The position numbers are program-made. Shown piece by piece: positions 9,001 through 24,000 of a stretch of DNA of 64,000 nucleotides. How positions within the stretch are numbered: position 1 is the stretch's first letter; each line of letters begins with the position of its first letter. This DNA is from Escherichia coli. Lineage in GTDB: Bacteria; Pseudomonadota; Gammaproteobacteria; Enterobacterales; Enterobacteriaceae. Location: the NCBI RefSeq assembly GCF_041886205.1, contig NZ_CP169030.1. One strand, 5' to 3'.

Positions 9001-12000
9001 TGCCGCATAATGATAATATAAGTAAAGCCCCGAAAATTTTTCGGGGCTTTACTTATATTATCATGACTTCCACTCCCTGAACTGTTCGGCAATCATCCAT
9101 AATGCTTTGTTGATTCGGATATCACCATCAATACCCGTAATGGCTCTTGTCCTGGTATTTTTACCGGAGGCACTTCGCCCCGACAGTCCACCTTTTATCA
9201 TATTCTCCTGAACCCGCTGCCAGGTTGTCCAGAGATCGTTCTGTTTATCCTCCCAACGACGGGGAGTAATTATTTGTTCAGGCGTCACTGGTGTTTTATT
9301 TTCATCTTCATACCTGACCATCAATGCAGCTCTGCCAAATAAATGTTGCTCGTCACTGTTAAGATGTATTTCTTTCATCGCCTCCATATTATCAGTAACC
9401 TTATCAAAGACACCGAGCACTTCATACGCACCCTCGATAACCTGCCCGACAATATCACCTTTATGTGGAACGCGGATTTCGCCAAAATTATTTCCGCACA
9501 CCAGACCATTTGTGCAGACAAAACGAAAAATTCCGGGGATCATCTGATAACTGGATGAACCATCATGTGAATTAAGCAGGATAATTTCAGGAACTTCTTT
9601 CCCGTTAATATTCCCTTCCCTGCGAAGACGTAACATATGTTTACTGTATTCGCGGCGTCCCAAATCGCGAACCCGACTCTGACAGGCAAAGAACGGCTGG
9701 AAACCTTCATCACGTAACTTATTGATGATATTAATGGTTGGAATATATGTATAACGCTCACTCCGGGATTCATGTTTATCACCGGAAAAGACAGACGGCA
9801 CAAACTGCATTAATTCATCATCCGTTAAAGGACGCTCACGGCGAATGGAATTATACCGACCAAAACGGGAAGCTAATCGCATAACAGTAACTCCTTTATG
9901 AAGGTATAAAATTAATAAAAATTTTTTCGCGTAATATCATCCTCCCTCGGTTATCATTAACAATAAGATAACAATTCCGAGGGAAAGGACCATCAAATCA
10001 GGTCAGTTCGGGACTGACCAACCTGCCGGGTGAAAAGCAGTAACAGCGCGATCAGCTCATCAGCGTTTTTTCTGACAAGAGGGGTATGATTCTCCAGGCT
10101 ATCCAGTAAGTCATGCAGCTCATTATTGACCTGGTGGAGCACCTTAAAAAGCGCCCCTGAATCCTGGTTGCTCTGATAGGCGAGACTGGCCTTAACAGCG
10201 TTATTCTGCATGATCCCGATTTGTGCGATTGCGTCTTTCTGCTGATCGCCTGTTGGCTGATAAGTGGTGTTAAAAGAAAATGCGCTCATGTTTCATTCTC
10301 CTGTGTCTGATGTTTTCAGCCCCCATCATCTGTTGAGTTTCGGGAGCCGCGGTTTTGACGTTTTGCGGGGACCTGCTCTTTGCTCCCTCCGGTATTCACC
10401 ATCACCTGTTTGAGAACCTTCGCCGCATGGGGCATCACTGCCACGGCCGGAAACGACTGTCCGGGGGCAGACCGCAAAAGTTTTTGCCTGCTTTTGGGCA
10501 AAAAGTTTTGCGGGATGTGCATTTCACCCCTGGACTGGCGGAGACGGTTGTGGCTGTCTATGCCCCCGGCGACAGGGGCTTAAACAGGTGAATCGCACCG
10601 GACAGAACAACGGGCAGGGACCCGCCGCAACGACGTGAAGCGCGGTTTGCGAAACGGCGTTGCTCCTTACATCCCGGCGTCTTTTTGCCGGGATGCCGGG
10701 AGCGCAGGTCACGGCGCGACAAGGGTGGCGCGACCGTTCCGGTCGCTGAAAACCCGGGTTTTTGCGTCAGGGATGGAAGCCGCCAGGGCGGAGACAGCTC
10801 CGCTGGCTCCGTTCACGACAGCCCGCCCCGCCAGGGGGACGCCCGGAAAAGGCACTGCCAGGAGAACAACAAAACAGAGAGTAATCAGAGCAGCAGAAAA
10901 AAGAAGAACAGTAGCAGGAACCGCAACATCATCAGTAACAGACAAATGACAGGTCTGAAAAGACAGAAGCCCACAGCAGAACGTCCGCGTAATGAAAGGG
11001 GCGGCGCGTCAGCGCGGCCTTTTTTACCAGCACTGACACCGTGTGCCAGTGCAGCCTCTGGCGACGCTACAGCGCTGCCAGTTCATTCAGGATATGGGGG
11101 TTTCGCTCAACCATTTTCATCAGCAGGATGGCTTGTTTATTAGGTTTAGCCAGTCCCTGCTCCCAGTTCTGCAGGGTAGTGACGCCGGTATGTAAATACT
11201 GTGCGAAAACAGCCTGTGATAGCTTCAATTTTTCGCGTACCGCTTTCACCTCATCGGGCGTCATAGTGACGGGTTTTGCGCTGACCTTGTGTGTTCTCAA
11301 AGTTTTTTTGCCAGCATTAAACTCTCCCCACGCAGCCATGCCTTCCTGCAATTCGCTAAAAATATCACGATCTTTCATCAACGCCCCCTTCGTCTGGCCT
11401 GTTCAAGCATTTCGCGTAAAATATCGCGCTGTGCTTTCGTCAAATCATCTTTCTGGTCTTTGTCATACAGGGTGAACAACAGAAAGTGGGATTTTTCCAG
11501 ATACCAGTAGTAAATCACTCTGATGCCGCCGCGTTTCCCCTTGTTACGCCTTGCATCCCCAAACCGTACCTTGCGCAATCCCCCGGTATGCTGGATAACA
11601 TCACCGCATAACGGATTTTTCAGCAACATCTGCTGAAACTCCCGAAACTCATCATCCGTGAAATATTCAGCACGATGCCGCTCGAACGGCGGCAACTCGA
11701 CAAATAGTGCTTCCATAACACCTCACAAAATCCCCTTTACTTGGGGATATTATACCCCCCAACATGGGGACTCTTCAATTGAGTTCAGACAAAACCTCCT
11801 GCTTTAGCAAGCGTTTCATAGTGCCCAATCAGAAGTTCCAGCCCATCCGCTTTTTTTTGAAAACGGCTGTATGTGAAACCATCGCATCGATCAGTGCATC
11901 AAGCTCTGCGCGGAGCTCCAGTATCCTGGTTGTAAACGTATTTTTGCCCTGGCTGGTCATCCAGTTTAAATATGCCTGTACCGCGCGTTCCTGCATGATT

Positions 12001-21000: not shown

Positions 21001-24000
21001 GGCGGCTCACCTCATCAGTTAAAAGCGCGTTTCAGTTCGAGTGTGCGGAGCACCTGCCCGAAGGCCGTGTTTTTCATGGCGGGGATGTGTACACCACGCC
21101 CCCGGTGAAAACTCCTGGCAATGTGTCGTCCGAAGGCTTTCAGCACGGGGTCAATTTCCGGCGCGGGGATGTCTTCGCGTCTGAAACGGGGATGACGGCG
21201 GGGCTTTACAGCCGCTGCGGAAGGTGAAACAATACTTACTGTCATAATTTAGCCTCTTATGACGTTAATTAATGAAACCGTAAAGACTGTTCGTGCAGTC
21301 TCTGCGGTGTGGATTAAGCAGGTCCCTGACCTGCTTTTTTCATATCTGCATCTGACGCTTTCCGGTGTTTTCCTCCTTCTGTTCCTGCGTTCTCATTACC
21401 TGCCAGCCGGATGACTGACAGAACAAATAAATGCGTATTGCCGGAGCCTGAAATAAATCCTGATTTTTAAAGAACATCACCCGTTGAGTTTCGGGAGCCG
21501 CGGTTTTGACGTTTCGCGGGAACCTGCTGCTGTATTCCCTGTGGTATGAACTTCACCCGTTTGAGAACCTTCGCCGCAAGGGGCATCACTGCCACGGCCT
21601 GACGCACCTGTCCTGGGCAGAACGCAAAATTTTTTACCGGGTTTTGGGTAAAAAATTTTGTGGGCTGTTCATTTACCCTGGACAGTCAGTGCGGCAGGTT
21701 GTGGCTGTATCAGCCCCCGGCGACAGGGACTCATACGGGTGTGTGGCACCCGGCAGGCAATGAGCAGGGACCCGCTGCAACGACGTGAAGCGCGGTTTGC
21801 GAAACGGCGTTGCTCCTTACATCCCGGCGGCCTTTTGCCGGGATGCCAGGAGCGCAGGCCACGGCGCGACAAGGGCGGCGCGACCGTTCCGGTCGCTGCA
21901 AGCCGGGGGTTTTGCGTCAGGGATGAAAGCCCGCCAGGGCGGAGACAGCTCCGCTGGCTCCGTTCACGACAGCCCGCCCCGCCAGGGGGACGCCCGGGAA
22001 AGCCATAAACAGGAGAGGAACGGAAAGAAGAGGAAGAAGAACAGTAACCACAGAAACATAACATCAGGAAAAAACATTCCGGACACATCACAAACGGGAA
22101 GGGAAGCGGGCGACGCGCCAGCGTGGCCCGCTTCCCTTCCGGCAGGCGCCAGCCTGCCAGGGGTTTTCGCGCGGGCTGACAGGCGGCCTCCACCGCCTGC
22201 CCTGTATCACCTGTGCCTGCTGCCCTGAAGGATGTACTGACCACCCAGGAAAACCGCCTGCTGATTCGCCACAAAATCGCAGATTTCATCAACAATCTGC
22301 GCGGTGGTGAGCGGTTTCTGCCCCATTTCACGACGCCGCGCATTAATCACGGCCCTGTAATTACGCAGAATTTCGCGGGTTTCCGTGCTGATATTCATTA
22401 CCCGTTCTCCCCGTCCAGCGCCTGACGCATCACCCGCATAATCTCACGTTCTTCCCTGACAAATGCGTCACCGTCGCCCCCGTTCTCGCTCCCTACAGCA
22501 TGGAGGCGATAAATTTCACTACCAGCCATCACCATCACTTTTTCCAGCAGCACCGCAGGGACTGTTACAAGACGGTTTACGCGCTTTTCCTCCATCAGTT
22601 CACGAACAACGTCGTGAACAATGCTGACATCAGCACCATGCTCAAAGGCATCGTCCAGCCGCTGCATGACGGTTTCCAGCTCATCGTCTGTCAGACTCCA
22701 GTCCTGGGCTATGTGACGCACATCCCCACGGGTCAGCACCACGGCAAAAACGCATTCACTGTCCGGCACGTCTGTATCCAGCACTTCGCGGATAATTTCT
22801 TTAACAGTACAGTACATGTTCTCGTCTCCTTTACAGGGGCGGCATCGCCGCCCCGTCCGTTAATCAGTCCAGTGCTGCGTAAATCGCGTTACATTCGGGG
22901 TGAAATTCGATGTGGCTCCACAACTGCGCATCGCGCATCCGGTAAAGGTGTGTCAGTCCCGCATCCCCGCTGTCGTGGTACAGCCACAACTGGCGGTTAA
23001 TCACAAGGGAAGTCAGGATGATACCTGCGGCATCAGCACTCACAGTGCGGTCAAACCAGTTTTCACCGTTGACCAGATGAAAACGGTCGCCATCCGGCAT
23101 CATGTAACCGCCACCGTCCGGCAGGCGGATGAAATGCCAGAAGCCTCCCTGATATTCCGGCATCATTTTTTGCGCCAGCGCGTACACATACGCCTCGGCA
23201 TACAGAAAATCGTTGCCAAACAGGTAAGGCAGAAAAGAAAGGCGGTCGCACTCTTCAACGTTCAGAGTGACAGATTTCGCATACTGCATGGGATTTCCTC
23301 CGTTGTTCACATATTCCGCGACACCGGGCGGTGCCGTGCCTCCATCTTTGCCGGGCCTGCAGGGTTGCAAGGGCGCAAGGGAAGCCGCAGCCTGACGCAC
23401 ACGGCTGACGGGAGTTGGAGGGTGAGACCGCGAAATCTGAGCGGGTGAACGACCGGAAAATCACGGCAGACGGGAAGGAGGGACCGGGTGACCGCAGCGG
23501 TTCACCTTACCTTGCAACCCGCCCGCAGAAGCCCGGCTACGATGGAGGCACGGCACAGCCCGCACACGACGCTGAGGCTACAGAGTTGAAAACCCACAAG
23601 GCCATGCCCCGCATGGCCGGGTAAAGCGGAGCCGCCGGCGACTTCCTTTTGCTCTGTCCGGGGACAGGCAGGAAAAGGCGGAGATTTTTCCCCGCCAGCG
23701 TCATCATTTCCGGATTTTCGCCAGTGCATCCGCCATGCTGCGGATTTCATCCCGTGCCTCCAGAACAACCTCCCGCAGAATATCCCGGTCAAACCAGCGA
23801 CGGGACGGTTCATCCGGTATACGCAGCACATCACAGACCAGACCACTGGCCAGGATATGCTCCACACACTCACAGACCAGGTACATTTCCACAGAAGAAA
23901 AACGGGCGCCACGGTTCAGAATGGCATCGAGCACCACGGGCAGATTTTCGTCATCTTCATCAAGCCAGCAGGGGTAATCGCTTTCCTTCACCACCAGGCG

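Follow-up and report, generated by a model that had tools for sequence, protein, structure and literature searches.

In the recipient cell, the Frpo hairpin of plasmids F and IncI1 rebuilds -35 and -10 elements, and host RNA polymerase then reads the early genes before the complementary strand is made; Frpo transcripts can also prime complementary-strand synthesis, and the promoter is off once the DNA becomes double-stranded (PMC9849209, PMC12672017, bioRxiv 10.64898/2026.01.09.698686). These published accounts deal with the hairpin, and one published search was restricted to regulatory regions of 50-350 bp. Multiple Frpo copies and recombination between them are also in the literature (PMC3817090, PMC9849209). 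In the IncI1 plasmid pO26-CRL125, R1-R3, "imperfect repeats with homology to Frpo", are dispersed direct repeats of ~460 bp that exceed the hairpin; they flank blocks of leading-region genes and undergo recombination, with a chimeric repeat marking where a 9.7-kb block was lost, and they were described just as promoter-containing, without structural or comparative analysis of the part outside the hairpin (PMC3817090).

In this study, we have explored a 64-kb stretch of Escherichia coli DNA (hereafter the window), which is an IncF-type plasmid. Its + strand is the one transferred in conjugation (the T strand), which enters 5' to 3' beginning at oriT (~7.9-8.1 kb), and its gene order and orientation agree with those of F and pUC4224_1. 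Four direct copies of a repeat lie at about 10297-11027, 12805-13426, 18193-18926 and 21475-22044, where an initial annotation had placed them, and the 64 kb contain exactly four instances of a 32-nt core motif, against zero expected by chance. As also proposed there, the copies stand upstream of minus-strand genes (directly downstream of copies 1-4: a 98-aa ygeA-like gene, an 89-aa gene, ssb and a 76-aa gene). The description "near-identical over ~650 bp" was too generous, since pairwise identity is 84-95% over 543-740 bp and the tail out to a terminator-like hairpin is common to copies 1 and 3 only. Each repeat is a cassette consisting, in + strand order, of a ~317-nt hairpin, a GC-rich accessory module of ~190 nt, a purine-rich, T-poor tract of 100-150 nt and a terminator-like hairpin that closes the operon upstream. 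The features are as follows (GGCGCGAC x2 denotes two direct repeats 14 bp apart, found in all four copies).

10337..10655, + strand: copy 1, class-1 ssDNA promoter hairpin (Frpo-type), from motif positions, 91.7% identical to F Frpo1; AT-rich tip palindrome 10476-10509; 98-aa ygeA-like gene (9993-10289, minus) and DUF932 gene downstream
10670..10846, + strand: copy 1, accessory module ("GC-rich extension"); E1 10670-10695, GGCGCGAC x2 10713-10734, E2 10730-10746, reduced junction 10765-10846 with Ha-like hairpin 10789-10811 and weak R1 match 10779-10811
10847..10996, + strand: copy 1, purine-rich, T-poor tract (A 47%, T 9%)
10998..11019, no strand assigned: copy 1, terminator-like GC hairpin, ending the upstream operon (gene 11378-11716, minus); no call by the consensus terminator scan
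12845..13163, + strand: copy 2, class-1 ssDNA promoter hairpin, from the MFE hairpin; tip 12983-13016; four small minus-strand genes downstream (12530-12799, 12143-12475, 11829-12074, 11378-11716)
13178..13355, + strand: copy 2, accessory module; E1 13178-13203, GGCGCGAC x2 13221-13242, E2 13238-13254, reduced junction 13273-13355 with Ha-like hairpin 13298-13320 and partial R1 match 13288-13320 (E 0.17)
13356..13495, + strand: copy 2, purine-rich tract (A 46%, T 12%)
13502..13516, - strand: copy 2, terminator-like hairpin (terminator-like site predicted at 13516-13504), downstream of hok/sok
18233..18551, + strand: copy 3, class-1 ssDNA promoter hairpin, 87% identical to the F Frpo2 region; tip 18371-18404; operon of ssb, DUF905 gene, ParB-like gene (herB/yfjB), psiB and psiA directly downstream
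18566..18742, + strand: copy 3, accessory module; E1 18566-18591, GGCGCGAC x2 18609-18630, E2 18626-18642, reduced junction 18660-18742 with Ha-like hairpin 18685-18707 and partial R1 match 18675-18707 (E 0.21)
18743..18895, + strand: copy 3, purine-rich tract (A 48%, T 10%)
18897..18918, no strand assigned: copy 3, terminator-like GC hairpin, ~75 nt past the stop of the methyltransferase gene (18992-19555, minus)
21488..21805, + strand: copy 4, class-1 ssDNA promoter hairpin; tip 21626-21659; 76-aa gene (21015-21245), DUF3560 gene (19602-20963) and methyltransferase gene downstream
21820..21997, + strand: copy 4, accessory module; E1 21820-21845, GGCGCGAC x2 21863-21884, E2 21880-21896, reduced junction 21915-21997 with Ha-like hairpin 21940-21962 and partial R1 match 21930-21962 (E 0.17)
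21998..22095, + strand: copy 4, purine-rich tract (A 52%, T 7%)
22101..22136, no strand assigned: copy 4, terminator-like long GC hairpin (inverted self-match 22097-22140), ending the upstream operon

The ssb reading frame listed as starting at 18225 is over-extended; as read from the sequence, the protein starts with MAVRGINK near 18184.

The suspicion that the 5' part of each copy is a Frpo/ssi element proved right: aligned to Frpo1 and Frpo2 of F, the repeats are 82-96% identical, and T-strand folding gave the expected imperfect hairpin of ~317 nt (z -7.2 for copy 2, whole cassette, and -9.2 for copy 3). The hairpin is more stable on the + strand by 8-16 kcal/mol in the window (16.4 in copy 1) and on the T strand in all 23 hairpins compared across loci. 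Like the window copies, Frpo1/Frpo2 (ssp1a/ssp1b) of F and ssi1-3 of IncI1 form a long imperfect T-strand hairpin with an AT-rich tip and occur as multiple dispersed direct copies, and the F elements likewise stand before the ygeA-like gene and ssb-psiB. Since copy 3 lies directly upstream of the ssb-psiB-psiA operon, it is the equivalent of Frpo2/ssp1b. We are all but certain that the repeats are class-1 Frpo cassettes and that the reading frame inside them, discussed below, is spurious. By analogy with F and IncI1, the early minus-strand genes that would be switched on here include the ygeA-like gene, the ssb-psiB operon, the DUF3560 gene and the methyltransferase gene.

In all four copies, similarity runs past the hairpin core into the GC-rich ~190 nt that follow. 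This extension had been thought to roughly double the usual element size, a view that does not hold, as both Frpo1 and Frpo2 of F and most class-1 copies of other plasmid groups carry it too. Nor is identity limited to a ~300-bp core: the extension is the best-conserved part, with conservation of 0.92-0.95 among ten F-type copies as compared to 0.89 for the promoter hairpin, and identity falls sharply to 0.55 in the adjoining purine tract. Similarly, in IncI1-like elements a 73-nt block is 92% identical and the hairpin just 79%. Two queries matched 3865 and 3876 of 5426 complete E. coli genomes, and the extension adjoins Frpo-type promoters in thousands of plasmids. It matched no Rfam family, and we found no published description of it, the accounts of class-1 promoters consulted treating the hairpin.

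In relatives (IncI1, IncFII(K), IncL/M, Pantoea, Yersinia and metagenomic sequences), the extension is made of two small hairpins, E1 and E2, followed by a multi-helix junction; in the window, E1 and E2 are followed by a reduced junction, to which the junction model gave only weak partial matches (E 0.17-1; no match elsewhere in window positions 9000-30000 scored below E 0.37). E1 and E2 are perfect palindromes on either side of a conserved GGTGAAAGC linker, and each hairpin persists through at least eight different stem sequences. Covariation is strong in the junction module, where 98.1% of alignment cells pair, against 26-50% with slid partners, in an alignment that had been fitted to the model's structure; compensatory changes were found in 11 of 23 pairs, and the observed score was reached by none of 500 shuffles. 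With DNA parameters, 95/101 copies of the module fold more stably on the T strand; with RNA parameters, the gene-sense strand is the worse one in 73/101. E1-E2 favor the T strand in 50/62. Of the four window copies, one has a slightly better fold on the complement; the p-values of these strand comparisons and of the covariation test overstate independence because the sequences are related. The folding energy of the F-type extension is no better than that of shuffles (z -1.7). Taken together, these data argue that the extension is very probably a selected structural element.

Based on our results, our best overall explanation, to which we assign a probability of roughly 60%, is that the repeats are Frpo cassettes in which the promoter hairpin is accompanied by a selected module with a boundary or helper role. 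The role itself, a cis-acting function in single-stranded DNA, is proposed tentatively. Folded on the T strand, the module would leave SSB without a free single-stranded landing pad beside the hairpin base, and might obstruct RNA polymerase or DNA polymerase coming from the upstream operon, so that the promoter hairpin could form and persist. Strong folding (-75 kcal/mol or lower) is found 5' of the module in 51 of 87 contexts and on its 3' side in 2 of 87. Other plasmids also carry orphan copies that keep the purine tract and the terminator hairpin and lack the promoter hairpin; the module may therefore just as well belong to the operon-end unit. In addition, the unpaired nucleotides of the canonical module are highly conserved, which points to specific recognition by some factor and is left unexplained by a purely steric boundary.

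One other possibility is that the extension acts as RNA, on the gene-sense strand, through read-through from the upstream operon, either as a compound termination zone (intrinsic hairpin, then U/C-rich tract, then structured block) or as an RNA that is structured and processed. Multi-way junctions whose unpaired nucleotides are conserved are a typical feature of functional RNAs, the orphan copies tie the module to operon ends, and behind copy 2 the minus strand has a predicted terminator-like site. Nevertheless, the module is located past the terminator-like hairpin, with the expected start site of the next promoter downstream of the module, no sigma-70-like promoter is predicted in or beside the repeats, and Rfam was silent. 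Wobble pairs are nearly absent as well (~0.6%; 14 G.T pairs and 21 A.C mismatches, both very rare, among 2297 cells), and the gene-sense fold is the poorer one in most copies. We consider an RNA function unlikely.

The extension could also be where complementary-strand synthesis is primed on the T strand, as either a primase recognition site or a PriA-type primosome assembly site, the latter considered because a DNA junction mimics a fork. One site per operon boundary would let double-strand conversion proceed in segments, and Pantoea indeed has one copy per operon (nine in 17 kb). In favor of this, the extension folds as an ssDNA junction whose loops are conserved, and it sits on the T strand in one fixed orientation; the published working model is one of discontinuous conversion, and priming within the leading region has been observed. 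Against this, early conversion events in F are rifampicin-sensitive and attributed to Frpo transcripts, and F fragments isolated as ssi signals in the leading region depended on RNA polymerase. The M13 minus-strand origin, the G4 origin and the phiX174 primosome assembly site are likewise folded ssDNA elements, with one to three hairpins, and must be single-stranded for host enzymes to recognise them, but no sequence similarity between the extension and any phage record was found. A priming role is improbable on this evidence.

Could the extension be functionless, copied along with the promoter and kept similar by gene conversion? Copies within a single plasmid can be nearly the same, as with two Klebsiella ones that agree at nearly every position over ~700 nt, the F-type folding energy is unexceptional, and recombination between repeats, anticipated by the initial annotation, is real and already documented (PMC3817090, PMC9849209). 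However, conservation reaches from one plasmid group to another, with at least five helices showing compensatory changes, it ends sharply at the purine tract, and the extension is better conserved than the functional hairpin; we consider this reading quite improbable.

Even less credible is a double-stranded regulator site in the established plasmid, with the GGCGCGAC direct repeats and palindromes as operators, for example for the ParB-like HerB or a silencer. The duplicated GGCGCGAC, the perfect palindromes and the silence of leading genes in donor cells (PMC9849209) would fit; but the E1/E2 stems vary freely with pairing kept, as expected of a structure and not of a sequence-specific operator, the Klebsiella type has a single GGCGCGAC copy, HerB ChIP-seq gave no consensus motif and reported sites are chromosomal, and folding strand asymmetry is meaningless for duplex DNA.

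Finally, an Arg-rich + strand reading frame of ~105 codons had been reported in each copy, with the caution that it may be coincidence. A + strand frame starting VKRGLRNG, from the same GTG, is indeed open in all four copies (104, 105, 105 and 147 aa), and "hypothetical protein" is often annotated there in public records. Single-base indels put its C-terminal half in different frames in copies 1 and 3 versus copies 2 and 4, and one-base indels at three sites shift the frame in 4 of 10 F-type copies, the disruption in homologs that would be expected of a chance frame. A GC content of 65-68% is by itself enough to keep two or three + strand frames free of stops. With these indels, variable columns of 13, 14 and 8 by codon position (no excess at the third), no Pfam match to any protein family, and an ORF strand that in the recipient is template and not sense, we reject the frame as a gene; that it encodes a real small protein is hardly conceivable.

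We return to the reading of the extension as a boundary or helper module of Frpo cassettes. The Frpo/ssi descriptions consulted cover the hairpin, and the adjoining conserved ~190-nt module is absent from them. A related system is F ssp2 (a class-2 ssDNA promoter, "Frpo3"), whose stem-loop stalls complementary-strand synthesis until UvrD resolves it (bioRxiv 10.64898/2026.01.09.698686). Like the extension, ssp2 is a GC-rich T-strand fold of the leading region, and the time for which downstream DNA remains single-stranded depends on it; unlike the extension, it has another sequence and is itself a promoter. In F, the strong roadblock maps to where the ssp2 stem ends and not to the Frpo extensions, which counts against a strong roadblock role for the latter. 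Within class 1, IncI1 copies have the full junction module and the window copies a reduced one, and F has two copies where the window plasmid has four, the extras standing before a four-gene insert and the DUF3560-methyltransferase operon.

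Whether resistance plasmids survive host defences is decided by early expression from the single strand as it enters, and current work takes the promoter hairpins as the whole signal. In this analysis, we have followed four repeats within the window's leading region and, above all, the GC-rich module of about 190 nt that lies 3' of each promoter hairpin (the extension). There is nothing unusual in the repeats as such, which have been explained before. The extension is real and selected, and we found no description of it in Rfam or in the literature searched. It is conserved above the hairpin, and more than two thirds of complete E. 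coli genomes contain sequences that match it, which makes this folded module beside the promoters an obvious candidate component of the signal.

The window is an IncF-type conjugative plasmid, with oriT placed at about 7.9-8.1 kb by traM, the traJ leader and FinP RNAs, and an SLT gene. The leading region runs upward from oriT and all of its early genes lie on the minus strand; from these two observations, the + strand is the transferred (T) strand and the early-gene template. The repeats lie in this region beside oriT, the genes downstream of them being templated by the T strand:

About 10297-11027, direct orientation: repeat copy 1
About 12805-13426, direct orientation: repeat copy 2
About 18193-18926, direct orientation: repeat copy 3
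About 21475-22044, direct orientation: repeat copy 4
Minus strand, leading-region genes: DUF932 gene, 98-aa ygeA-like gene, hok/sok, psiA, psiB, ParB-like gene, ssb, methyltransferase gene, DUF3560 gene, anti-restriction genes

Each repeat is a cassette of hairpin, extension, purine-rich tract and terminator-like hairpin, and a 32-nt core motif occurs four times in the window, against none expected. The initial annotation had described four near-identical copies of about 670 bp; four direct copies whose similarity runs far past the hairpin core are indeed present, "near-identical" being too strong for pairwise identities of 84-95% over 543-740 bp. Its placing of the 5' part with the Frpo/ssi promoters was borne out, since the copies are 82-96% identical over 555-807 bp to Frpo1 and Frpo2 of plasmid F and each forms on the + strand an imperfect hairpin of about 317 nt with an AT-rich palindromic tip. 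When copies 2 and 3 were folded as DNA, the cassettes gave long stem-loops with z-scores of -7.2 and -9.2, and all four hairpins are 8-16 kcal/mol stabler on the + than on the minus strand. The AT-rich palindrome is the tip of the hairpin, and a scan of the repeats for the -35 and -10 hexamers on a single strand gave no match reaching 9/12; in this class, these hexamers and an UP-like element would be rebuilt in the stem. On sequence grounds, we assign the repeats to the class-1 single-stranded-DNA (ssDNA) promoters, whose function in early expression (PMC9849209, PMC12672017), transcripts that serve as primers (bioRxiv 10.64898/2026.01.09.698686) and wide distribution (13,089 homologues; PMC11541004) have been described. 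With a repeat copy as query, matches were obtained in 3865 of 5426 complete E. coli genomes, at a median of four places per genome. Zygotic induction, i.e. transcription from the single-stranded form only, has been shown for F and pESBL (PMC9849209, PMC12672017) and, by homology, would be expected of the copies in the window.

The initial annotation had taken the extension to roughly double the usual size of such elements. This does not hold: both F copies carry it, so it is not peculiar to the window plasmid. Among ten F-type copies it is more conserved than the hairpin arms, while the purine-rich tract that follows it has diverged widely.

Mean pairwise identity among ten F-type copies, by part of the cassette
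Hairpin arms: 0.89
E1 (first small hairpin of the extension): 0.946
Block with E2 (second small hairpin): 0.92
Distal part of the extension: 0.947
Purine-rich tract after the extension: 0.55

The same is seen in IncI1-like elements, where a 73-nt block of the extension stands at 92% against a hairpin down to about 79%. We compared the extension with its relatives on Klebsiella IncFII(K), IncI1, IncL/M, Pantoea, Yersinia, Enterobacter, Citrobacter and Cedecea plasmids, in which it consists, in order, of E1, a conserved linker (GGTGAAAGC or the F/IncI-type block), E2, TTGACC repeats and a junction of the helices P1, P2, Ha, Hb and Hc. The unpaired stretches of this junction are conserved (CATCAG, CTAG, GGCGGAGC, TAGCGGAGT, GACGAC and GGAGCCGAAGG). 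The TTGACC hexamer between E2 and the junction is present in one to four tandem copies (for example at about 3040-3160, minus strand, of comparison locus L074); it resembles a -35 box, and no -10 follows it.

The structure of the module is under selection. A metagenome scan combined with a covariance model of the five helices (R1) yielded 118 junction copies in 83 loci, in which 98.1% of cells pair, against 26-50% when the partners are slid; compensatory changes occur in 11 of 23 pairs, and no shuffle attains the observed score. E1 and E2 each stay hairpins across eight or more different stem sequences, as seen in per-sequence folds anchored on the linker; MAFFT with RNAalifold on the same region missed E1 owing to length variation. 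In the Pantoea agglomerans plasmid NZ_CP090210 (3289-20713), nine junction modules occupy a leading region of 17 kb, one per intergenic gap, and only one of them adjoins a class-1 Frpo core that can be recognised; the remaining long hairpins of this plasmid may be diverged or different classes of ssDNA promoter.

The window copies carry E1 and E2 (variable loops GAA and TTC), and in them GGCGCGAC is duplicated. These hairpins lie directly 3' of the promoter hairpin and are homologous to those of full-junction plasmids: over 73 nt, the E1/E2 block shows 92% identity with IncI1-like copies running on into the full junction, and metagenomic copies join the F-like block to a full junction. Searched with R1, neither the window nor F gave a match at E <= 0.01. 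With the filters off, the matches were partial (model positions 16-48, E 0.17-1), the four best on the + strand being exactly the four repeats, and the window extension folded alone has an unremarkable energy (z -1.7). The distal part is reduced, and we treat the window form as a reduced, diverged relative.

The frame of about 105 codons noted inside each repeat, with the reservation that it might be coincidence, is not a gene, though annotated in many records, and the reservation proved apt. A frame starting VKRGLRNG is open in all four copies, but single-base indels put copies 1 and 3 in a different frame from copies 2 and 4, and 1-nt indels occur in 4 of the ten F-type copies at three different sites. 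In these ten copies, codon positions 1, 2 and 3 hold 13, 14 and 8 variable columns, with no third-position excess, and the frame has no match in Pfam; together, these results rule out a protein-coding gene. Two or three frames are free of stops because the GC content is 65-68%. In public records, the extension is widely annotated as "hypothetical protein" and sometimes as "pilus protein" or "transporter", labels that are probably artefacts of stop-free GC-rich sequence, and the spurious frame thereby explains many "hypothetical protein" entries in plasmid records.

The module would most likely act in cis as an ssDNA boundary or as a helper for the promoter. The boldest reading, to which we give a probability of roughly 0.4, is that the extension represents, locally and in reduced form, a widespread and hitherto undescribed functional ssDNA element (two hairpins and a multi-helix junction with conserved loops) that would be specifically recognised on the T strand, would mark the operon boundaries of leading regions and would control either the life of ssDNA promoters or the places at which complementary-strand synthesis begins and ends. 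The roadblock version of the boundary idea is limited, because the F roadblock was mapped to ssp2, which is a class-2 promoter, rather than to the Frpo copies (bioRxiv 10.64898/2026.01.09.698686). As to position, most module copies are 77-106 nt from a hairpin domain of 240-300 nt, and the 335 nt lying 5' of the module fold to -75 kcal/mol or below in 51 of 87 contexts, against 2 of 87 for the 3' side.

One alternative is an RNA or termination element. It draws on orphan modules, which keep the purine tract and the terminator hairpin while the promoter hairpin is absent, so that the module may be as much a part of the operon end as of the promoter. As to known RNA families, the Rfam 15 covariance models matched nothing in the repeats (E <= 1), nor anything in the canonical modules on Pantoea or Klebsiella plasmids. 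Rho utilisation was left as a minor part of this alternative, the composition of the pyrimidine-rich gene-sense tract reading as U-rich rather than as both clearly C-rich and G-poor. A priming site is another alternative; 50,697 phage records, among which G4-type and phiX-type complementary-strand origins were sought, held no similarity to the module, and literature searches, for its sequences as well as for leading-region primosomes or PriA, returned nothing relevant. A further alternative is a duplex operator, for which a strand preference in folding would have no meaning. Calibrated on the promoter hairpins, whose action on the T strand is known and which are stabler there in 23 of 23 cases (mean 11 kcal/mol), the comparison of folding energies favours the T strand for the junction in 95 of 101 copies (mean 4 kcal/mol), for E1-E2 in 50 of 62 and for the window extension in 3 of 4, a bias that is supportive, not decisive, the sequences being related. 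A wobble-pair test of strand was uninformative (G.T 14 against A.C 21, one pair dominating each count). A pure hitch-hiker fits poorly with compensatory change and with conservation above the hairpin's own.

Two further readings were rejected. A HerB/YfjB binding site was dropped, the paper reporting no motif and chromosomal sites only. Module motifs also occur within one 170-nt stretch of E. coli 23S rRNA (nt 616-790), namely GGGAGCCGAAGGG (at 618), CCCGAAACCCGG (at 671), TTAGCGGA, TGTGGCT and GGTGAAAG. Their arrangement is neither colinear nor significant, 5-20 of 200 shuffles being just as good, so the likeness is probably chance.

Several observations concern the genes around the repeats. 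The 5' end of psiA (14131-14850, minus strand) looks frameshifted or truncated, the reading frame to which the conserved C-terminal part of about 207 codons belongs being interrupted by a stop at codon 33; its longest ORF in the window has 177 aa, against the 720-nt psiA of pUC4224_1. The mechanically called ssb ORF (17647-18225) is too long, the conserved MAVRGINK start lying near 18184, and its GGAGA Shine-Dalgarno sequence is at the 5' edge of the repeat. Just 5' of copy 4, at 21240-21339 (+), is the Rfam RNA AS-pc01 (antisense to pHK01_035; 98.9 bits, E 6e-17), antisense to the start of a 76-aa gene (21015-21245) and with a + strand terminator (21316-21336) at its end; it recurs at the equivalent spot next to one Frpo copy of a plasmid of Klebsiella type (L011, 11025-11121).

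That such repeats can recombine, as the initial annotation proposed, is already in the literature (PMC3817090, PMC9849209). In pUC4224_1, a truncated repeat (10284-10404), over which a "hypothetical protein" is annotated, fuses repeat positions ~36-101 to ~454-509 as an internal deletion derivative adjoining a full copy. Between copies 1 and 2 of the window (10990-12800) are four small minus-strand genes (112, 81, 110 and 89 aa), missing from F and pUC4224_1, whose sole family match is a weak RelE-like one (11378-11716, E 2e-4, below the Pfam cut-off); this block has the appearance of a cassette that was gained or lost between repeats.

If the boldest reading is true, conjugation would have, in this module, a second kind of ssDNA signal next to the promoters. 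As for the repeats, their copy number marks the sites at which gene cassettes have been gained or lost in the leading region: F has two, one (Frpo1) upstream of ygeA and the other (Frpo2) upstream of ssb, with a single copy between ygeA and hok/sok, whereas the window plasmid has four.
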